7,432 nt of DNA from IMG/VR virus record IMGVR_UViG_2548876951_000007; one strand, given 5' to 3'. Positions 479-7,432 of this stretch are shown in pieces. A model generated the notes under the pieces. That model had not been told where the DNA came from. It worked only from the letters and a program-made list of their open reading frames with translations, and did no database searches. Position 1 is the stretch's first letter, and the number at the start of each line of letters is the position of its first letter. Source of the DNA: a virus (taxonomy: Duplodnaviria > Heunggongvirae > Uroviricota > Caudoviricetes). A program made the position numbers and the translations under genes.

Positions 479-1357
479 TCAGACTGCAAGATCCAAGGGA
501 AGATCAGAAATATCCTTTAATCTTTTACCATTAACCATCACGGAAAGCATGTCAGCTGCATCGCTGAGCCCCAGTATTTCAACTGCTGATATAAGTTCAT
601 AAAGCGCAAAATGATACACGCAATCTATATCACCAGTACCAAGAGCAATAGACGCCAGACGACTTGGAGTAGGCTCAGCAGTAACAACCATTACATGAGG
701 GAGATTTCCCTTACGGTTGCGAATAAGATTTAATGCCTCAGAACGAGCATTCTGGGCCCGGTCGCTTCTTATTGTCCATTTGCAGGAAATACTTGCGTGT
801 AATATTGGTTTCCCACCATTCGAACTCCTGAGAGCTGACATGCGGGTAACAGAATCATCCACCAGTAATTCAGGACTGTTGATAACTTGATCACATTCAG
901 GTTCTCTTTCAACAATAATATCTGGTGAAATCGTATAATCACTCCCCAGTGCAGCAGCTAGCTGAGGATTACTTTTTGCAGCACTATCCAATGCTATAAG
1001 ATGGGCATATTGTTCATATTTAGCTATCTCTAATCTGTTTCTACCAGAAACCTGATGTACATTCCATTTTCCAGGGCGTAAGTGGCTGAGTTTAAAAAAG
1101 GTTTTTTCTATAAACTCTGCGCAGATACTCTCAAACTGATTACCAGATGTTTGCCCTGCAACACGTTCACCAATCGTTTCAGCCTGCAAGAAGCGAGCAA
1201 TTTCTCTTGCTATAGCTTTACTGTTTTTGTTACTGCTATCTGCGTTACTAACAACTCCGGCAGTATTAATTGTGAGCGTATTCAGTAACAATTGGGCATG
1301 AAACTCCTTTCTGGCTTCAGCAAAACCAACTATGCTGTCAACCAAATCTCCATTCAT
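479..1357 (-). CDS. Type II restriction endonuclease, NgoMIV/Cfr10I/Bse634I-like family (CCGG-core recognition expected)
   Basis: 292-aa ORF from ATG 1355-1357 (M46 of the track ORF), with AGGA about 9 nt upstream and starting 13 nt after the MTase stop. Contains SPDIIV (PD) and HASISCKW (S-x-K) followed by RSDRAQNARSE, which I recall as the variant PD...SxK active site of the NgoMIV/Cfr10I fold. The track start at 1492 would overlap the MTase gene by 120 nt and is less likely. Confidence 0.7.
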   Translation of the reverse strand: MNGDLVDSIVGFAEARKEFHAQLLLNTLTINTAGVVSNADSSNKNSKAIAREIARFLQAETIGERVAGQTSGNQFESICAEFIEKTFFKLSHLRPGKWNVHQVSGRNRLEIAKYEQYAHLIALDSAAKSNPQLAAALGSDYTISPDIIVEREPECDQVINSPELLVDDSVTRMSALRSSNGGKPILHASISCKWTIRSDRAQNARSEALNLIRNRKGNLPHVMVVTAEPTPSRLASIALGTGDIDCVYHFALYELISAVEILGLSDAADMLSVMVNGKRLKDISDLPLDLAV

Positions 1358-1370
1358 TTCTGGATTTCCT

Positions 1371-2495
1371 TCAGGCTGCTTGACTATTCTTACTGATGTT
1401 ATTCTTATACCGTCCCTGCAAAACTCCATACACATATTGTGCGATTTTTGCTGCAAATAGCGGTGGAACAGCATTCCCGATCTGCTTTGCAATCTCAGTT
1501 TTTGAACCGGTAAAAATGAAATTATCAGGAAAAGACATTAATCTCGCTGCCTCACGATGAGTTATTGGCCGATCCTCTTCCGGATGTAAATATCGCCCTT
1601 TCTCCGGTTTGAAAAACTCAGTACGAATCGTTACTGAAGGTCTGTCCCACCACAGACGTCCAAACAAATCGGTCCCTCCAGATTTCTTTTTTAGCCAGCA
1701 CGCCGGGGTTATATCAGGTCTTTTTTTCTGTAAATCGAAACGGTTACCTCCTGGTGGAACCGCTTTATATCGCTCCAGAGAAACAGGTGTGGGATTACGC
1801 CCAAAATGTAAGTTCAGCGGAGGAAGTTCATTACGAATATCAGTTCCAACAGGAGCAGGTAAGTCACCAATTGCATCACGCGTACAGACCCATTCAGGCA
1901 AAGCGACATCCTTATCAGGGGAACGATGCGTTGGTGCTGGCGGGAACGCCGGAATACTATGCACATCGAAGAGTTCTCGTTTGATACCGATTGCTATCGT
2001 TCGTTTTCTTGTCTGAGGTACTCCATAGTCAGCAGTATTCAACACCATTGGATTAAGCAGAATAAAGCCCATGGATTTCGCTCTAAACGTAATGTCCGCA
2101 AACTCATCGCTTATCAGCAATCCGGGGACATTTTCCATGACGAACATACAAGCCCTTGAACGCTCAATGACATCCATATAAGGCTCCCACAATGCTCTTC
2201 GGTGATCACCATAACGATTCTTATTCAATAAACTGAATCCCTGACACGGGGGGCCACCTATGACCACATCAGCCTCAGGAACAGTATTGCTGGATGCCCA
2301 CTCCTCAATATTTGCCTGAACTCCATGCAAACCAAAATTGGCATTGTAGGTATTTATAGCTGCAGCATTATTATCAATAGCAAGGATACTTTCAAAGTAG
2401 TCAGACATCTCTCCATGAAGAAAACCATAAGATAATCCACCTGCCCCACAAAAGAGGTCTATCACTCTGAATTTATTTAATTCTTTCATCCGCAT
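1371..2495 (-). CDS. DNA (cytosine-5)-methyltransferase, Type II R-M modification subunit
   Basis: 374 aa with canonical C5-MTase motifs in order: motif I DLFCGAGGLSYGF, motif IV GGPPCQGFS, motif VI ENVPGL, motif VIII VPQTRKRTIAIG, motif X QIGNAVPP. GAGG about 8 nt upstream of ATG 2495. Confidence 0.9.
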   Translation of the reverse strand: MRMKELNKFRVIDLFCGAGGLSYGFLHGEMSDYFESILAIDNNAAAINTYNANFGLHGVQANIEEWASSNTVPEADVVIGGPPCQGFSLLNKNRYGDHRRALWEPYMDVIERSRACMFVMENVPGLLISDEFADITFRAKSMGFILLNPMVLNTADYGVPQTRKRTIAIGIKRELFDVHSIPAFPPAPTHRSPDKDVALPEWVCTRDAIGDLPAPVGTDIRNELPPLNLHFGRNPTPVSLERYKAVPPGGNRFDLQKKRPDITPACWLKKKSGGTDLFGRLWWDRPSVTIRTEFFKPEKGRYLHPEEDRPITHREAARLMSFPDNFIFTGSKTEIAKQIGNAVPPLFAAKIAQYVYGVLQGRYKNNISKNSQAA

Positions 2496-2578
2496 CCATA
2501 TGCCTCAGATTAATGTTGAGCGTCTTACAGGACGCGTAATGTTAACTGGGGCTTTCTCTATCTGCCTTTTGGTGTTCA

Positions 2579-2603
2579 TGCCTGAGGCAGACAGCCTCAG
2601 GCA
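2579..2603 (-). promoter_or_regulatory. 9-bp-stem perfect palindrome (TGCCTGAGG-N7-CCTCAGGCA) between the QueH-like and MTase genes; operator or leader hairpin
   Basis: Seen directly in the sequence. No U-tract follows on either strand, so it is not a canonical intrinsic terminator. It sits immediately downstream of the candidate promoter at 2613-2641. Confidence 0.35.
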
Positions 2604-2612
2604 CCCGCAGCA

Positions 2613-2641
2613 ATTCTACTTAACTCACGTCACCTCGCCAA
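2613..2641 (-). promoter_or_regulatory. candidate sigma70 promoter for the MTase/REase genes
   Basis: On the minus strand: TTGGCG (forward 2636-2641), a 17-nt spacer, then TAGAAT (forward 2613-2618). Consensus match only, no experimental support. Confidence 0.3.
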
Positions 2642-2673: not shown

Positions 2674-3360
2674 TCACTCCTTCTCTTCTTTTCCGTAGTG
2701 GAGTTGGCCAATTTTGATAAGAGGGCGTCCCTGAGATTTGCGGTGTAGATTGGTATCGCGCAGAGAATACACACAGCCACAATATTCCTGCTGATAGAAT
2801 TTTTCGCGCTTGCTGATTTCAATCATACGGGACGAGCCGCCCTGCTTGCGCCAGTTATAATCCCAGTACACCATACCCGGATAATGCGCAACAGCTCGCC
2901 GCCCACACTCGTTAATCTGCTGCATATTTTTCCAGCGTGAAATGCCCAGTGAACTGCTGATCACACTGAAACCATTTTCAGCAGCGTACAACGCTGTCCG
3001 CTCAAAACGCATGTCAAAACACATGGTACAACGGATCCCCCTCTCAGGCTCCCATTCCATTCCTTTGGCACGTTCAAACCAGTTGTCGGTGTCGTAATCA
3101 GCATCGATAAACGGCACGCCGTGTTGTTCAGCAAAGCGAATATTTTCATCCTTACGAATTAAATACTCTTTCTGAGGATGAATGTTCGGGTTGTAGAAAA
3201 AGATGGTGTAGTCGATTCCCGAGGCCTGAAGCGCCTCCATCACTTCACCGGAACATGGAGCACAGCAAGAGTGCAGTAGTAGTTTGTTTGCCCCGTTTGG
3301 GAGCTCCAATTTAGGCCGTTTGAAATCAGCAATAGTCATAAATATTTTTATTGGGGTCAT
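2674..3360 (-). CDS. queH: QueH-like (DUF208) epoxyqueuosine reductase family protein, putative Fe-S enzyme
   Basis: 228-aa ORF with an N-terminal [11 protein letters not shown] motif, a central [10 protein letters not shown] and a C-terminal EYCGCVYS. This Cys pattern matches what I recall of the QueH/DUF208 family. The start is uncertain: neither ATG 3360 nor ATG 3339 has a clear SD. Confidence 0.55.
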
Positions 3361-3513: not shown

Positions 3514-3939
3514 CTAGTAACGTCTAAAATACCTAACATTTCCTTGATAAAATGCCAGTACACGCTGCATAGCTTCGCTCTTCCGGCACTCGCGACAGAT
3601 TATGTTTAGGCGCCTGTCGTAGCGGCGTATTTCGCCGTCTGGTAATAGCCAGATAAGGTCCGGATCAACCACAGATGGTTTCTTCAGCTTTGCCCTTGAG
3701 AGTTTTTTGCGGGCGTTTTGCCAGTCCTTGCGCGCCTGCTCAGACGGGAATACTCCGTAACCGGAATTGTAAACATCACCACTGGCGGCCAGCTCCATGC
3801 ATAAACGACCGACAGACGCATGACTGACACCAATTTCATCCGATAACTGCCGAATCGTGCCTCGTCCGTTAAGGCGTACGAATTCCACGATCAGCCCTTT
3901 AATTTTTTCCCGCTCTTCTTGTGTAAAAACTTTTGCCAC
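3514..3939 (-). CDS. HTH-domain protein, function unknown (sits where a helicase loader is expected)
   Basis: 141-aa ORF starting at GTG 3937-3939, preceded by a strong SD (AGGAGGG, about 4 nt spacer), 38 nt downstream of the upstream replication-gene stop. Predicted HTH around TIRQLSDEIGVSHASVGRL; basic C-terminus. No DnaC/P-like Walker motifs. Confidence 0.5.
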   Translation of the reverse strand: MAKVFTQEEREKIKGLIVEFVRLNGRGTIRQLSDEIGVSHASVGRLCMELAASGDVYNSGYGVFPSEQARKDWQNARKKLSRAKLKKPSVVDPDLIWLLPDGEIRRYDRRLNIICRECRKSEAMQRVLAFYQGNVRYFRRY

Positions 3940-3979
3940 AAGCCCTCCTGAAAATTACCTCATGACCAGAAATTAACAC

Positions 3980-4942
3980 TTACCCCCTGAAGCCCGGCGG
4001 AATTTCAGTGTCCGGTTCAGAAATGTGATTCACGCAACGCTGCGCAGGTGAACGCCCCAGGCGGATAACCAGTTCATCCCATTTTTCCCGGAGTTTTGCC
4101 GGACTCATGATGTTTTTTACCCAGAACGAATCCCGCTGGAGACGCCCAAACATTTCACAAATTTGTCTGTGAGTTCTGCCATCCAGCATCCGCATTGTGC
4201 GAACGTCATTGGCCCATGCTGTCCAGTTGGGTTCTTTCGGTCTAGTGATCTCGCCATCATCGCTGGCCGCCTGCTCGTAAAGACTCACGATTCGTCCCCA
4301 GATCCACTGTGCGCACACCAAATCTTCCTGACTTCCCCACTGGCGTTTTTTCGCACTGAACACAACCGCGTCAGGGTGTCGGGTTAAAAAATCCTGTTCA
4401 GCCATCTGCGGGTCCGGTTGCGAAGCGTCCGGACAAGAAGATCTTTTATCTGACGGATCAGGTTTTAATACTGACGGATCGGGGTCAATCATCGCCCCCC
4501 TAATCGGCAGTTTTTTATCAACAGTTGATCCATCAAAATTTAACGGGTCAACCGTTGAGGGGTCAATATTTGACGGGTCAACTGTTAACGGGTCATTTTT
4601 TGCCGGGCTAATTTTTCTTTTCGGTTTATATGACTCACGCGCCGCCGCCGCAGCTGCTTCGAGTTTTTCCACATTAAGCCGATAGATATTGCTTACATTA
4701 CGCCCACCGACCTTACGCTCTTCCTTCGTCAGCCAGCCCTCTTTCGCCAGTTCTGCAATAGCCGATTTCACTGTGGATTCACTTCTTGCACCGATCTGAC
4801 GCCGGATAGTTTCAATGGCAGGCCATGACACGCCCTCGTCATTGCTGTAGTCTGCAAGACGGGCCATAACCGCCACCCTGGATAAGATCATGCCGGTGAA
4901 GGCGCACCCTTCCCAGACAAGACCATGAAGCTTGCTGCTCAT
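3980..4942 (-). CDS. phage replication initiation protein (O-like / YdaU-position), N-terminal winged-helix domain
   Basis: About 320 aa from ATG 4940-4942 (the track start at 4957 is GTG). The N-terminal segment WPAIETIRRQIGARSESTVKSAIAELAKEGWLTKEER resembles the HTH of phage/plasmid replication initiators. The central low-complexity VDP-repeat linker is encoded by the tandem 15-bp iterons. It lies immediately downstream of the YdaT-like gene, as in Rac. Confidence 0.6.
   Translation of the reverse strand: MSSKLHGLVWEGCAFTGMILSRVAVMARLADYSNDEGVSWPAIETIRRQIGARSESTVKSAIAELAKEGWLTKEERKVGGRNVSNIYRLNVEKLEAAAAAARESYKPKRKISPAKNDPLTVDPSNIDPSTVDPLNFDGSTVDKKLPIRGAMIDPDPSVLKPDPSDKRSSCPDASQPDPQMAEQDFLTRHPDAVVFSAKKRQWGSQEDLVCAQWIWGRIVSLYEQAASDDGEITRPKEPNWTAWANDVRTMRMLDGRTHRQICEMFGRLQRDSFWVKNIMSPAKLREKWDELVIRLGRSPAQRCVNHISEPDTEIPPGFRG
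4541..4615. repeat. five tandem 15-bp iterons (consensus about TRACGGGTCAAnnnT) inside the replication gene; putative origin
   Basis: GGGTCA/GGGCTA cores start at 4545, 4560, 4575, 4590 and 4605, an exact 15-bp period. A degenerate copy lies at 4481-4489. The adjacent 4505-4540 stretch is AT-rich and 4440-4530 holds four GATC sites. Confidence 0.6.
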
Positions 4943-4964
4943 AAAACCCCCGAACACCGTGCTT

Positions 4965-5390
4965 TTAGTGCATCACCACAGCATTCCCTGCCGGGCCGCC
5001 GCGATTCATCTGGTCATACAAAACAACCGCTGACGCAACAAAATCATCGACATCCTTCACCAGCCGATCCCTCCGTTCGACGATCTCACGGTAATATTCA
5101 GAACTGTGGCTGCGCATACGGGCCACCAGCAAAGGCGGCATCGCCTTTTCGATCGCCGGTAACAGAGCCTGCATTTTTTCAACAGCATCAGGGGTGTCTT
5201 TATCCAGCCAACGGAAAATTTTCTGGGTATTACGGGCCAGGGCTTCCGGATGGCTGTCGTCGTACAGTTCAGGGAACGTCATCCCCAGTTCGAAATAAGT
5301 CCGGGCTATTTCAGCTGCAGGAACTTTCTCACCATCAGGGTATGCCCAGGCATTCATCGCCATGCGGATGTGCTCATGTTTGATTTTCAT
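4965..5390 (-). CDS. ydaT: YdaT-like prophage protein
   Basis: 141-aa ORF with ATG at 5388-5390, overlapping the upstream Cro-like gene end by 17 nt (translational coupling). Size and position (third gene after the repressor, second in the cro-side operon) match Rac ydaT. Assigned by synteny and recalled similarity, not by search. Confidence 0.55.
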   Translation of the reverse strand: MKIKHEHIRMAMNAWAYPDGEKVPAAEIARTYFELGMTFPELYDDSHPEALARNTQKIFRWLDKDTPDAVEKMQALLPAIEKAMPPLLVARMRSHSSEYYREIVERRDRLVKDVDDFVASAVVLYDQMNRGGPAGNAVVMH

Positions 5391-5697
5391 GAATCATTTG
5401 CCTCTTGATGCTTCGGGTATGATCGTTTTCGTCATTTGGTTGCTTCATCGACATATTCTGCGAATAACATGACGAGCGTCGTAAGTATGTCCAATCAACA
5501 TCAGGACGAAGTTCTTCACACAGGACACCACCTTTTGTTGCTCGTTCAATCGCAGGACATCTCTCAGCAGGTAACTGACGTACACCTTTGATCCATTGAT
5601 TTACGCTTGGAGGAGATACACCTAAAAGCCTAGCCATTGCTGATTGCCCACCGACAACAGCACAAGCTCGTTTGAATGAATAGTTATCTTTTTTCAT
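5374..5697 (-). CDS. ydaS: Cro-like HTH DNA-binding protein (YdaS-like)
   Basis: 107 aa from ATG 5695-5697 with GGAG 10-13 nt upstream; the track start at 5718 is GTG and lies upstream of the predicted transcription start. HTH segment QSAMARLLGVSPPSVNQWIKGVRQLP. Transcribed divergently from the repressor gene. Confidence 0.65.
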   Translation of the reverse strand: MKKDNYSFKRACAVVGGQSAMARLLGVSPPSVNQWIKGVRQLPAERCPAIERATKGGVLCEELRPDVDWTYLRRSSCYSQNMSMKQPNDENDHTRSIKRQMIHENQT

Positions 5698-5724
5698 CGA
5701 ATGAACTCCAAAAAACACGCAACA

Positions 5725-5792
5725 ATATTAGGTTTAGCCTAATGAAATTGTCAATAGGCTATGCCTAATACATCGAGAGTAGGGATTGCCTA
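5725..5792 (-). promoter_or_regulatory. cro-side (PR-like) promoter with three operator-like dyads
   Basis: On the minus strand: -35 TTGACA (forward 5749-5754), an 18-nt spacer, -10 TAATAT (forward 5725-5730). Three TAGG-N5-CCTA dyads at 5729-5741, 5755-5767 and 5780-5792, with centres 26 and 25 bp apart. Confidence 0.5.
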
Positions 5793-5821
5793 ACGCGATG
5801 CGCATAGGAGACTATTAAGCA

Positions 5822-6298
5822 ATGCTTAGTGGTAAAGACTTAGGCCGAGCGATAGAGCAGGCCATTAACAAAAAAATTGCATCAGGAGCCGTCAAATCAA
5901 AGGCGGAAATCGCACGTCATTTCAAAGTCCAACCACCATCAATCCATGACTGGATTAAGAAAGGTTCGATAAGTAAAGACAAACTTCCAGAACTATGGCG
6001 TTTCTTTTCTGATGTGGTTGGTCCAGAGCATTGGGGGCTTAACGAATACCCCATACCAACCCCATCCACTTCAGATACAAAAAGTGAACTTTTAGACATA
6101 AACAGCCTTTATCAAGCCGCCTCTGATGAAAAAAGAGCAATTGTGGCTTTCATCTTATCTGGAAATGCTACGGAGCCTAGTTGGGTTGATCATGACGTTC
6201 GCGCCTACATTGCCGCAATGGAAATGAAGGTAGCTAACTATCTGAAAAATCAAGAATCAAAACGGAAAAGCCAGAACATCACCAAGACAGGAACTTAA
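5822..6298 (+). CDS. racR: prophage repressor, RacR-like HTH protein
   Basis: 158-aa ORF with an N-terminal HTH (SKAEIARHFKVQPPSIHDWIKKG), divergent from the Cro-like gene and flanked by operator clusters. Length and synteny match Rac racR. Confidence 0.65.
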   Translation: MLSGKDLGRAIEQAINKKIASGAVKSKAEIARHFKVQPPSIHDWIKKGSISKDKLPELWRFFSDVVGPEHWGLNEYPIPTPSTSDTKSELLDINSLYQAASDEKRAIVAFILSGNATEPSWVDHDVRAYIAAMEMKVANYLKNQESKRKSQNITKTGT

Positions 6299-6312
6299 AC
6301 TTATATGGTCCG

Positions 6313-6334
6313 ACGGGAAATTCCTAGTTCCCGT
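6313..6334 (+). terminator. possible terminator hairpin after the repressor gene
   Basis: ACGGGAA-N8-TTCCCGT, a perfect 7-bp inverted repeat about 15 nt after the racR-like stop. The downstream T-tract is weak (TAGTTAACT). Confidence 0.3.
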
Positions 6335-6374
6335 TAGTTAACTCCTACTACCTCTCCCACAAACCATCACCTAT

Positions 6375-6435
6375 TAGGTTGCGCCCAGATTATTAGGCAT
6401 AGCCTATTGACAAGTAATTAGGCATTTCCTATAGT
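6375..6435 (+). promoter_or_regulatory. rightward (PL-like) promoter with three operator-like dyads
   Basis: -35 TTGACA 6407-6412, a 17-nt spacer, -10 TATAGT 6430-6435. TAGG-N5-CCTA dyads at 6394-6406 and 6419-6431, plus an imperfect one (TAGG-N5-CCCA) at 6375-6387. Nearly identical to the cro-side promoter but in mirror orientation. Confidence 0.5.
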
Positions 6436-6616
6436 TTTCCCATACCAACCCATCCCGTCCCACACAATACAGGGCAATACCTCGAGTTACCAGGCAGTGG
6501 TCAGGGGTTAAGTAGCCAGCCCGAGGCGTAAGAACATGACGGCAGGGTTCAACTTTAATAACTATGCAGCAGGTTTTTGTTCCGCTACCCCGGCGTTAAG
6601 GGGAAATGAGGTCAGC

Positions 6617-6769
6617 ATGGATACTATCGAGCTTGGCAACAACGAATCTCTGGTATGCGGCGTGTTTCCCAACCAGGACGGCACGTTTACCGCGATGACA
6701 TATACCAGAAGCAAAACGTTTAAAACTGAAGCTGGCGCGCGTCGCTGGTTAACCAGAAACACTGACTGA
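6617..6769 (+). CDS. small early-operon protein (about 50 aa; possibly YdaF/YdaG-like)
   Basis: ATG 6617-6619 with GAGG about 7 nt upstream; first gene downstream of the rightward promoter. An alternative start at ATG 6536 (77 aa) also has GAGG 9 nt upstream. No motif recognised. Confidence 0.45.
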   Translation: MDTIELGNNESLVCGVFPNQDGTFTAMTYTRSKTFKTEAGARRWLTRNTD

Positions 6770-6780
6770 TGAGGTTGACG

Positions 6781-7101
6781 ATGGAATTTAAAGATTTACC
6801 AGTACCATTCCAGGAAATGGCATCGAATGTGGTTCGCTCTCAACTGGCGACTCTTGACCTGAGTACCGTAGAAAAAGAAACCATCGACAATATATCCGGT
6901 AACGTACGCCGAGCCTTTATCGGGCTGTACGAAGAGAAGCAGCTCTCTGATAACCAGGATTTACATGAAAAATACTTCCTGGATCTAATGGACATCATTG
7001 ATAAGGGGTTTGGCTTGTTAATGAAAAAGAAAGGGATTCGAATAGAACCCCTTGAAAATTACTTTGCAACAAAAAGCATTAATTCTTTTGATTCAAAATA
7101 A
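6781..7101 (+). CDS. hypothetical protein (106 aa)
   Basis: ATG 6781 with GAGG about 6 nt upstream, 12 nt after the stop of the preceding small gene (operon-like spacing). The track start at 6769 is an upstream in-frame ATG without an SD. Its 3-prime end overlaps the convergent ORF 7079..7354 by 23 nt. Confidence 0.45.
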   Translation: MEFKDLPVPFQEMASNVVRSQLATLDLSTVEKETIDNISGNVRRAFIGLYEEKQLSDNQDLHEKYFLDLMDIIDKGFGLLMKKKGIRIEPLENYFATKSINSFDSK

Positions 7102-7354
7102 GAGAATTAATTACAGACTTAACATGCTCTTTCTCATGATTGAAGCTCTCATGATTGAAAGTGCCGGGTTGAAGCGAGTCGATATAATCAACAAGACTCT
7201 GTCGTACGACTTCATTTTTATCCATAACAGATGCAAGAAATGAAATTGCTAAAAGAGTTATATCACTACGCGCCGCAGCATGTTGCAATGCTTTATCAAA
7301 ATTATTAATCTGGCGTATCAGGGAGTTAATGATTTCATCATTTTCAGTCGACAT
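7079..7354 (-). CDS. hypothetical protein (91 aa)
   Basis: ATG 7352-7354 preceded by a strong SD (AGGAGGG, about 5 nt spacer). The track ORF extends to the window edge (7432) without a start there, so the internal ATG with the SD is taken as the start. AT-rich, acidic N-terminus; function unknown. Confidence 0.45.
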   Translation of the reverse strand: MSTENDEIINSLIRQINNFDKALQHAAARSDITLLAISFLASVMDKNEVVRQSLVDYIDSLQPGTFNHESFNHEKEHVKSVINSLILNQKN

Positions 7355-7432
7355 TTCACCCTCCTGAGGGTTGGTGATTAAGGAGTTCTCCACGGGTGAG
7401 GTGGAGTGCGTGCGCCGGACACGGGTGAGCAT

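Follow-up and report, generated by a model that had tools for sequence, protein, structure and literature searches.

Does a repressor gene facing two genes of so-called toxin families guard an addiction locus, or does it belong to a prophage immunity switch? The question is raised by positions 4965-6298 of a 7,432-nt stretch of Caudoviricetes DNA (hereafter, the window). This segment extends from the stop codon of a ydaT-like open reading frame to the stop codon of racR and contains exactly three intact genes: racR, a ydaS-like gene and a ydaT-like gene. An initial annotation described it as a module of RacR/YdaS/YdaT type, in which a repressor holds a potentially toxic early operon silent, and suggested that loss of the repressor would also drive the nearby restriction-modification (R-M) genes, making the region a compound addiction locus. 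In our reading, to which we assign a probability of about 0.87, the segment is the immunity switch of a lambdoid Escherichia coli prophage resembling Rac. Its layout corresponds to lambda OL-cI-OR-cro-cII-O, because a second operator/promoter set adjoins the 3′ end of racR. The racR/ydaS/ydaT switch is already well studied in E. coli K-12 and in CP-933P, and experiments on close homologues have been published (PMC9638921, PMC11014345, PMC11879457, PMC8630535, PMC9986795).

Genes of the switch and their distribution

The genes discussed here are the following.

5822-6298, plus strand: racR, prophage repressor and CI analogue, 158 aa
5374-5697, minus strand: ydaS-like gene, Cro analogue, opening the rightward-type early operon; 107 aa when started at the ATG at 5697
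4965-5390, minus strand: ydaT-like gene of CP-933P type, CII analogue, 141 aa, overlapping the end of ydaS by 17 nt
3980-4942, minus strand: O-like replication initiator, encoded next in the ydaS-ydaT operon

The similarities of RacR, YdaS and YdaT to known proteins are all far above chance level, and curated models together with solved structures suffice to fix the identities. RacR matches the NCBIfam equivalog NF049929 (TransRepsrRacR) over residues 1-145 with 246.3 bits (cutoff 200), and 144 of its 158 residues (91%) are identical to K-12 RacR, without gaps; dS between the two genes is 0.42 and dN/dS is 0.11. Among NCBIfam, Pfam and PHROGs, only NCBIfam names the protein: no Pfam family, the repressor families and the S24 peptidase included, was found at E ≤ 0.01, and no PHROGs family. 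Since there is no S24 peptidase domain, lambda-style, RecA-stimulated self-cleavage of RacR is unlikely, judging by the protein sequence. This feature separates RacR from lambda CI, not from lambdoid switches in general.

The YdaS-like product is 85% identical to K-12 YdaS (dN/dS 0.21). It matches the Pfam families YdaS_toxin (PF15943; E 3.8e-30, 103.9 bits, cutoff 30) and P22_Cro (E 1e-08), as well as PHROG 35, ‘transcriptional repressor’. Its helix-turn-helix resembles that of RacR, with 12 of 29 residues identical and the common motif PPS(I/V)xxWIK, which is why YdaS probably works at the same operators as RacR. The YdaT-like product matches YdaT_toxin (PF06254; E 2.8e-10, 40.9 bits, cutoff 21) and PHROG 163, ‘CII-like transcriptional activator’ (E 2e-47). 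Its identity to K-12 YdaT is no more than 31% (E 9e-15), whereas 134 of 140 aligned residues (about 96%) agree with the crystallised CP-933P YdaT (PDB 8bt1; E 3.3e-89), and the match to PDB 3c4r (E 2.4e-79) is likewise full length. The window thus carries the CP-933P allele, not the K-12 Rac allele that is toxic through rcsA. The O-like protein belongs to PHROG 391, ‘replication initiation O-like’ (E 2.4e-115), and to Pfam HTH_36. YdaS and YdaT are now viewed as Cro and CII analogues instead of toxins (PMC5917428, PMC8630535, PMC9986795, PMC11879457). The module type given by the initial annotation is borne out by these values, and the alignment to K-12 Rac that it had suggested as a check found similarity, the absence of which it had named as grounds for rejection.

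In the host-genome annotation, RefSeq matches that are 99.8-99.9% identical over the whole stretch name the genes ‘racR’, ‘toxin YdaT family protein’ and ‘helix-turn-helix domain-containing protein’. Among 5426 complete E. coli genomes, racR occurs with both operator sets in 1086 and the racR-ydaS-ydaT combination of the window in 530; about half of the racR-carrying genomes pair RacR/YdaS with a YdaT of CP-933P type. In relatives, the neighbourhood is that of a prophage: one flank carries int, xis, exo and dicB, the other O, Q and genes for lysis, terminase and capsid. No record found in a search of a phage collection spans the window (best coverage, 31%), and the element is known as a prophage rather than as a sequenced free phage.

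Operators and promoters flanking racR

The regulatory sites mapped around racR are listed below.

5729-5828, no strand: OR-type operator cluster, four inverted repeats TAGGC-n3-GCCTA
5725-5754, minus strand: PR-type promoter PydaST, TTGACA-18 nt-TAATAT
6375-6431, no strand: OL-type operator cluster, repeats at 6394-6406 and 6419-6431 (25 bp apart) and a weaker one at 6375-6387
6407-6435, plus strand: PL-type promoter, TTGACA-17 nt-TATAGT, leading away from racR into a DUF1391 (ydaF-like) operon
5380-5397, minus strand: YdaT-box, coding-strand sequence ATGATTCATGAAAATCAA, whose spacer contains the ydaT start codon
5575-5607, plus strand: reverse promoter PracR4, a PRE analogue, CTGACG ... TACGCT inside ydaS and directed towards racR, placed by alignment with K-12

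racR is transcribed divergently from ydaS-ydaT, and the 124-bp gap between racR and ydaS holds four inverted repeats of the cognate form (T/A)TAGGC-n3-GCCTA(T/A) (5729-5741, 5755-5767, 5780-5792 and 5816-5828), which span both the promoter of ydaS and the start codon of racR, the last of them overlapping the racR ATG; besides these, a single TTAGGC lies at 5840. A pattern search counted eight RacR-type sites in the window against 2.1 expected, a number reached in 0 of 200 shuffles, and seven of the eight lie in non-coding DNA on either side of racR. The repeats can be aligned with the region footprinted by RacR in K-12 (PMC9638921), with half-sites kept and spacers varying: about 3 of 70 half-site positions differ between the window and K-12, against 5 of 21 spacer positions. 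The operators are also more strongly conserved than the synonymous sites. PydaST (10 of 12 matches in the promoter scan) is flanked and overlapped by two predicted RacR operators, and its hexamers and spacing are those of K-12 PydaST (PMC11879457). Because the footprinted K-12 operators and PydaST are kept nearly base for base, silencing of the divergent ydaS-ydaT-replication operon by RacR is almost certain, in agreement with the initial proposal. K-12 RacR works by binding operator DNA (PMC9638921), and repression of ydaS-ydaT in vivo, with racR refractory to deletion as long as the operon is intact, is reported only for K-12 (PMC5700373, PMC5700377). Presumably, racR is also autoregulated.

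Exactly two consensus-like promoters were detected by the scan in 4900-6600, both operator-overlapped and both facing outward. The second of these, the PL-type promoter (11 of 12 matches), and the OL-type cluster are both conserved in K-12. Positions 6391-6413 form a perfect 23-bp inverted copy of 5748-5770, which ties the two sides of racR together, and the shared repeat suggests that RacR binds the downstream operators as well. As a milder novel point, an OL/OR pair about 640 bp apart would allow RacR to loop out its own gene alone; K-12 RacR is reported to be octameric. In K-12, ydaG, ydaF and kilR are derepressed upon RacR depletion (PMC11014345; bioRxiv 10.64898/2026.09.06.749655), which a second RacR operator/promoter set 3′ of racR would explain.

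Conservation extends beyond E. coli. Sites with at most one mismatch were counted in 12 loci with RacR homologues, including Mixta, Proteus and a Pseudomonadota MAG, whose proteins are 57-63% identical. All such sites belonged either to the upstream cluster or to a downstream pair 25 bp apart, the latter present in 9 of the 12 loci. This pair lies about 570-610 bp past the racR start and is kept in homologues down to 57% identity. A chance origin of the palindromes is rejected in view of the shuffles and of this conservation of position in distant homologues. When two near-duplicates are left out, nine of the remaining 10 loci have a ydaS-like gene opposite racR in divergent orientation, and a clear ydaT-like gene is found among the 10 in Escherichia only, in keeping with a cI/cro cassette whose cII slot can be exchanged.

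The second set (6375-6435) lies beyond the coordinates covered by the initial annotation and was overlooked there. It is conserved across genera and makes a small addition that may be useful to Rac researchers.

The YdaT-box is the sole match to (A/T)TGATT-n6-AATCAA in the window. Given that a match appeared somewhere in 34 of 200 shuffles, its weight comes from its position and from its identity to the footprinted K-12 YdaT-box, from which the CP-933P YdaT is known to cross-activate (PMC11879457). The reverse promoter lies about 180 bp from the box; its K-12 counterpart has the boxes TTGACG and TACGCT (PMC11879457), and the −35 box of the window is one base off (CTGACG vs. TTGACG).

Proposed working of the switch and competing readings

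In a lysogen, RacR would occupy the TAGGC-n3-GCCTA repeats, four of which cover PydaST and the racR start, while two or three repeats 3′ of racR cover the outward-facing promoter; with both sides bound, both early operons would be silent. Upon a drop in RacR, the PR-type promoter would express ydaS and ydaT and, further along, the gene of the O-like replication protein and those that follow it, and the PL-type promoter would express the DUF1391/ydaF-like operon. YdaS is proposed to act as the Cro analogue at RacR's operators, and YdaT as the CII analogue, a tetrameric POU-like DNA binder. By binding the YdaT-box at its own start codon, YdaT would switch on the reverse promoter inside ydaS, which would read back into racR and help to restore repression. 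Binding, repression, activation and growth inhibition upon derepression are expected here by analogy with the experiments on K-12 and CP-933P. The comparison with lambda is imperfect, since, in contrast to Cro, K-12 YdaS reportedly does not repress racR (PMC9638921), and K-12 YdaT has no effect on excision (PMC11014345).

A compound addiction locus, in which YdaS and/or YdaT would be dedicated toxins and loss of RacR would also drive the R-M genes and so enforce retention, is improbable. This reading is encouraged by the Pfam names YdaS_toxin and YdaT_toxin, which are still in use, by the shared strand of ydaS, the restriction gene and the genes between them, a stretch in which no convincing intrinsic terminator is predicted, and by the potential of type II R-M systems to be addictive on their own. 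Additionally, racR is essential in K-12 through its repression of ydaS and ydaT, whose products are reported to be toxic (PMC5700373, PMC5700377). Later work in K-12 found Rac YdaT alone to be toxic and YdaS not (PMC11014345), and this YdaT toxicity is reported to act through the host rcsA promoter and to be strain-dependent (PMC11014345, PMC11879457). The window carries the CP-933P type of YdaT, for which no toxicity was detected (PMC8630535; restated in PMC11014345). The description ‘toxic early operon’ is an extrapolation from K-12 and is only partly supported, because YdaT of the type found here is reported to be non-toxic and the toxicity of YdaS is disputed.

The addiction part of the claim is not supported. 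Loss of the element takes the repressed genes along with the DNA-acting repressor, so no post-segregational killing would be expected; moreover, RacR shortage in K-12 leads to excision of Rac, which relieves the toxicity and rescues the cell (PMC11014345), the opposite of addiction. Type II toxin–antitoxin (TA) pairs are co-transcribed, with the antitoxin acting on the toxin protein, whereas racR is divergent from ydaS-ydaT. Direct tests gave no TA behaviour (PMC8630535; cited in PMC5917428), and both the CP-933P authors and Jobling explicitly deny a TA pair (PMC8630535, PMC5917428). With PADLOC, only the type II methylase and nuclease were recognised; RacR, YdaS, YdaT, DUF977 and QueH matched none of its models. 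Any harm that follows RacR loss is that of prophage derepression, not the action of a dedicated toxin. While the Pfam ‘toxin’ names invite a TA or addiction reading, neither the literature nor the anatomy of this locus supports it. Because about one in two E. coli genomes with racR has a CP-933P-type YdaT, toxicity data from K-12 should not be transferred without testing to genomes with this pairing.

The proposed drive on the R-M genes is made less likely by the context of the methylase–nuclease (M-R) cassette, which lies 3.2 kb off and has a promoter-like site and a hok leader of its own.

2502-2641, minus strand: promoter-like site (TTGGCG-17-TAGAAT) and remnant of a hok mRNA 5′ leader, outside the switch

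The leader remnant directly precedes the methyltransferase start codon (2495), and homology with an O103 hokD locus stops at about 2502. Rfam RF01794 (‘sok’) matches 2426-2606 with 61 bits against a gathering score of 59, the E-value for the whole window being 4.8e-12. The other Rfam match in the window, RyhB over the terminator at 390-406, is at chance level (E 0.53), and none falls inside 4965-6298 (whole-window scan, E ≤ 1). The cassette need not depend on read-through from a RacR-controlled promoter. Such read-through is possible, since no convincing intrinsic terminator is predicted between the ydaS-ydaT operon and the cassette; a repressor-gated R-M module, reached from the PR-type promoter via O, DUF977 and queH, is highly improbable. 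If it were real, RacR loss would alter how much methylase and nuclease is made, and DNA cleavage would come on top of the damage from derepression.

That the segment is a decaying piece of a dead prophage, with genes and sites no longer functional, is scarcely credible. In its favour, Rac in K-12 is a defective prophage, and the DnaC-like loader gene, found between the O-like gene and DUF977 in the closest relatives, is missing from the window. All three open reading frames are intact and full length, the dN/dS values given above are low (0.11 and 0.21), operator conservation exceeds that of synonymous sites, and the loader-less arrangement is a recurrent natural variant. Even in K-12, the switch of the defective Rac is fully active (PMC5917428). 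An assembly artefact or a recent deletion was considered for the missing DnaC-like/DUF1627 genes; the artefact is rejected, because the same O-like/DUF977 junction recurs at 99.7% identity in 60 genomes.

Comparison with K-12 Rac, CP-933P and lambda

Against the background of the known switches, the present analysis establishes what the genes are, shows that all mapped sites are conserved, and adds a second operator set that is kept across genera. One of the closest known systems is the cryptic prophage Rac of K-12 (racR-ydaS-ydaT, b1356-b1358), with continuous DNA homology over 5367-6604 of the window. RacR (91%), YdaS (85%) and the divergent layout are common to both, as are the four RacR inverted repeats, the hexamers and spacing of PydaST, the downstream operator/promoter set, a YdaT-box that is identical, and the reverse promoter within ydaS. 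They differ in YdaT (31% identical), with a mosaic joint 23 nt into ydaT, just beyond the YdaT-box; in ydaS, which is longer by 9 codons in the window and overlaps ydaT; and in the −35 box of the reverse promoter (CTGACG vs. TTGACG). An O-like HTH_36 protein stands in place of YdaU, with only a C-terminal IPPGFRG motif in common.

The cryptic prophage CP-933P of E. coli O157:H7 (paaR2/ydaS/ydaT) shares YdaT (about 96%, PDB 8bt1), followed by an O-like gene, and a lambda-like organisation with PR, PRM, PL and PRE analogues (PMC8630535). In contrast, the window has RacR instead of PaaR2 and no paaA2-parE2 toxin–antitoxin pair behind the repressor. Its Cro analogue is of Rac type, the CP-933P YdaS being only 26% identical to Rac YdaS (PMC8630535), and its box has the Rac form ATGATT-n6-AATCAA, whereas that of CP-933P is TTGATT-n6-AATCAA.

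Lambda (OL/PL - cI - OR/PRM/PR - cro - cII - O) differs in its repressor, as RacR has no detected similarity to the Pfam repressor or S24 peptidase families. The window has four OR-side operators, one of them over the repressor start codon, and an OL-OR distance of about 640 bp with the repressor gene alone between; K-12 data also suggest that YdaS, unlike Cro, leaves racR unrepressed (PMC9638921). In both systems, two operator clusters flank the repressor gene, each over an outward promoter, and a small helix-turn-helix protein comes first in the rightward direction, followed by an activator of the reverse promoter and then by the replication initiator.

Genes of the module and their neighbours

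With a probability of about 0.87, the region represents a lambdoid immunity switch, in which RacR, YdaS and YdaT are the analogues of CI, Cro and CII, and which carries counterparts of OR/PR, OL/PL and PRE. The stretch 4965-6298, whose two ends coincide with the stop codons of ydaT and racR, had been read in the initial annotation as a RacR/YdaS/YdaT-type module with a repressor silencing an early operon. Profile matches and alignments with Escherichia coli K-12 bear out the module, and the silencing is very likely. RacR passes the NCBIfam RacR equivalog model (246 bits, cutoff 200) and shares 144 of 158 residues with RacR of the K-12 cryptic prophage Rac. The ydaS product passes Pfam PF15943 and is 85% identical to K-12 YdaS, while the ydaT product passes PF06254 with only 31% identity to K-12 YdaT. 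The latter matches the crystallised YdaT of CP-933P, a cryptic prophage of E. coli O157:H7 (PDB 8bt1; PMC9986795), in 134 of 140 aligned residues (our own count from the alignment); judged by sequence, it is of the CP-933P type, not the K-12 Rac type. The helix-turn-helix is alike in RacR and YdaS (12 of 29 residues identical, PPS(I/V)xxWIK), which fits competition of both proteins for the same operators. The module is not new: in RefSeq genomes that match the stretch at 99.8-99.9% identity, its genes are already labelled as racR, a YdaT-family protein and an HTH protein.

Genes of the window
about 479-1363, minus strand, NgoMIV-family restriction gene
1371-2495, minus strand, C5 cytosine methyltransferase gene
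2674-3360, minus strand, queH
3514-3939, minus strand, DUF977/Ren-like gene
3980-4942, minus strand, O-like replication initiator gene
4965-5390, minus strand, ydaT-like gene
5374-5697, minus strand, ydaS-like gene
5822-6298, plus strand, racR
ending at 6769, plus strand, DUF1391/ydaF-like gene
6769-7101, plus strand, unnamed ORF
7079-7432, minus strand, ORF convergent with the PL-side operon, starting at the very window edge

The last ORF, which gave no match in PHROGs or PADLOC, occupies roughly the place of sieB in K-12 Rac. The prophage-borne queH, an epoxyqueuosine reductase gene (Pfam 4.8e-66), has the restriction-modification (R-M) cassette on one side and the replication genes on the other; in its context, a feature named 'LygF' is listed under the matches of phage records matching the window. 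The DUF977/Ren-like gene directly follows the O-like gene (junction 3940-3981); in the closest relatives the two are separated by about 1.5 kb encoding a DnaC-like ATP-binding protein and a DUF1627 protein. Sixty complete E. coli genomes share the shorter gene order at 99.7% identity, so that it counts as a natural variant. The final residues of the O-like protein (C-terminus at 3980-4045) are EIPPGFRG, a motif common to the otherwise unrelated K-12 YdaU (13 of 19 residues identical) and weakly matching the C-terminus of the primosomal protein DnaT. This motif may be a common docking site for a host replication partner.

Predicted operators and promoters flanking racR

The RacR recognition repeat of K-12, (T/A)TAGGC-n3-GCCTA(T/A) (PMC9638921), occurs with at most two mismatches at eight sites in the window (2.1 expected; none of 200 shuffles reached eight), and seven of these sit in two clusters.

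Regulatory sites
5729, 5755, 5780, 5816, RacR sites of cluster 1, racR-ydaS gap
5754..5725, minus strand, PydaST-like promoter TTGACA-18-TAATAT (promoter scan)
6375, 6394, 6419, RacR sites of cluster 2, downstream of racR
6407-6435, plus strand, PL-type promoter TTGACA-17-TATAGT (promoter scan)
5380-5397, YdaT-box ATGATTCATGAAAATCAA, on the ydaT start codon
5575-5607, reverse promoter within ydaS (PracR4 counterpart), kept relative to K-12 with one -35 box change

The first two sites of cluster 1 bracket and overlap a promoter whose hexamers and spacing are identical to those of K-12 PydaST (PMC11879457), and the site at 5816 covers the racR ATG, as K-12 operator O3 does. Cluster 2, located beyond the initially annotated 4965-6298, overlaps the promoter directed into the DUF1391 operon. 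Segment 5748-5770 has a perfect 23-bp inverted copy at 6391-6413; thus, the two promoter/operator units are mirror images flanking racR. No explicit description of a downstream operator set in Rac was found in the searchable literature; a lambdoid phage would be expected to have one as its OL, and the set fits published RNA-seq. The leader past the PL-type promoter (6440-6604) is strongly kept with K-12 Rac up to a hairpin-like short inverted repeat, CCCCGGCGTTAAGGGG (6588-6603), where Rac homology ends. This repeat may act as an attenuator or nut-like element, or may simply mark the mosaic joint.

The YdaT-box matches the footprinted K-12 box at every base; through that box PracR4, the reverse promoter within K-12 ydaS, is activated by K-12 YdaT and cross-activated by CP-933P YdaT (PMC11879457). 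The window itself shows which genes and sites are present and how far they are conserved; beyond that, experiments in K-12 and CP-933P suggest that RacR would bind and repress here, that YdaT would activate the reverse promoter, and that derepression would inhibit growth.

Conservation and mosaic structure of the probable switch

Homology to K-12 Rac DNA is limited to 5367-6604; it takes in racR, ydaS and the two operator sets, and enters ydaT by 23 nt, far enough to include the YdaT-box. In strain Ecol_316 these CP-933P-type ydaT and O-like genes adjoin another repressor/cro pair, and in CP-933P they adjoin PaaR2 (PMC8630535). Of 5426 complete E. coli genomes, 1086 have racR with both operator sets, in nearly all cases as a single copy; 530 of them carry the window's combination and 555 that of K-12. 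Close relatives are full lambdoid prophages, with int, xis, exo and dicB on the PL side and O, Q, lysis, terminase and capsid genes on the PR side.

Aligned with K-12, both non-coding flanks retain the half-sites (by our own count, about 3 of 70 positions are changed), whereas their spacers (5 of 21 positions changed) and surroundings vary. For comparison, racR has a dS of 0.42 and a dN/dS of 0.11 against K-12, and ydaS a dN/dS of 0.21. Scanning one genome per species for RacR homologues gave 12 loci, each searched over 5 kb for operators. Sites with at most one mismatch are confined to the upstream cluster and, in 9 of the 12 loci, to a downstream pair 25 bp apart; among these nine are Mixta, Proteus and a Pseudomonadota MAG, with 57-63% protein identity. 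With two near-duplicates set aside, 10 loci remain; in 9 of them a ydaS-like gene lies divergent to racR, and a ydaT-like gene is clear in Escherichia only.

Two Achromobacter loci, found as homologues of the RacR N-terminal part, carry the pair at +2536/+2561 (L013) and +1853/+1878 (L015) from the racR start. The pair thus lies 1.9-2.5 kb off, instead of about 0.6 kb, and retains the 25-bp gap. This layout suggests that cargo genes were inserted between repressor and OL, like rexAB in λ and paaA2-parE2 in CP-933P. Another locus, L007, is a 5.2-kb contig labelled 'Candidatus Nanosynbacter' MAG (JARKOR010000130.1), whose RacR is 91% identical to that of the window, as close as in the two E. coli loci, and whose operators are arranged as in those loci; an Escherichia origin, with mis-binning into a Saccharibacteria MAG, is probable.

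Toxicity, addiction and comparison with λ

The early operon had been called potentially toxic and the region a possible compound addiction locus. YdaS and YdaT are named toxins in the 2017 papers (PMC5700377, PMC5700373), while Jobling argued that they are Cro and CII (PMC5917428). The Mruk group later confined toxicity to Rac YdaT (PMC11014345); according to their reports, it acts via the host rcsA promoter in a strain-dependent manner (PMC11014345, PMC11879457) and YdaS triggers excision (PMC11014345). CP-933P YdaT, the type found in the window, showed no toxicity (PMC8630535, PMC11014345). The toxic label needs qualifying for this module.

Addiction is not supported. No post-segregational killing would be expected because a DNA-binding repressor is lost along with its targets, and in K-12 cells short of RacR the prophage excises, whereby the cell is rescued (PMC11014345). 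The R-M genes, moreover, have upstream signals of their own: a hok mRNA leader remnant (Rfam hok/sok leader, 'sok' RF01794, 61 bits, gathering score 59; 2426-2606, minus strand) and, upstream of it, a promoter-like site, TTGGCG-17-TAGAAT (promoter scan; 2426-2641 in all, minus strand), directly precede the methyltransferase gene. Homology to an E. coli O103 hokD locus extends to about 2502, 7 nt short of the methylase ATG, so the methyltransferase and restriction genes appear to have taken the place of mok/hok/sok downstream of the hok promoter and leader. Promoter, leader and Shine-Dalgarno sequence of hok seem to serve the Type II cassette. PR read-through into the cassette may occur, since the intervening DNA gave no convincing terminator prediction, but would not be needed.

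Compared with λ, the switch differs in several respects. RacR has no recognisable S24 domain in a Pfam search, the OR side carries four operators, the OL-OR distance is about 640 bp, and K-12 YdaS has been reported as not repressing racR (PMC9638921).
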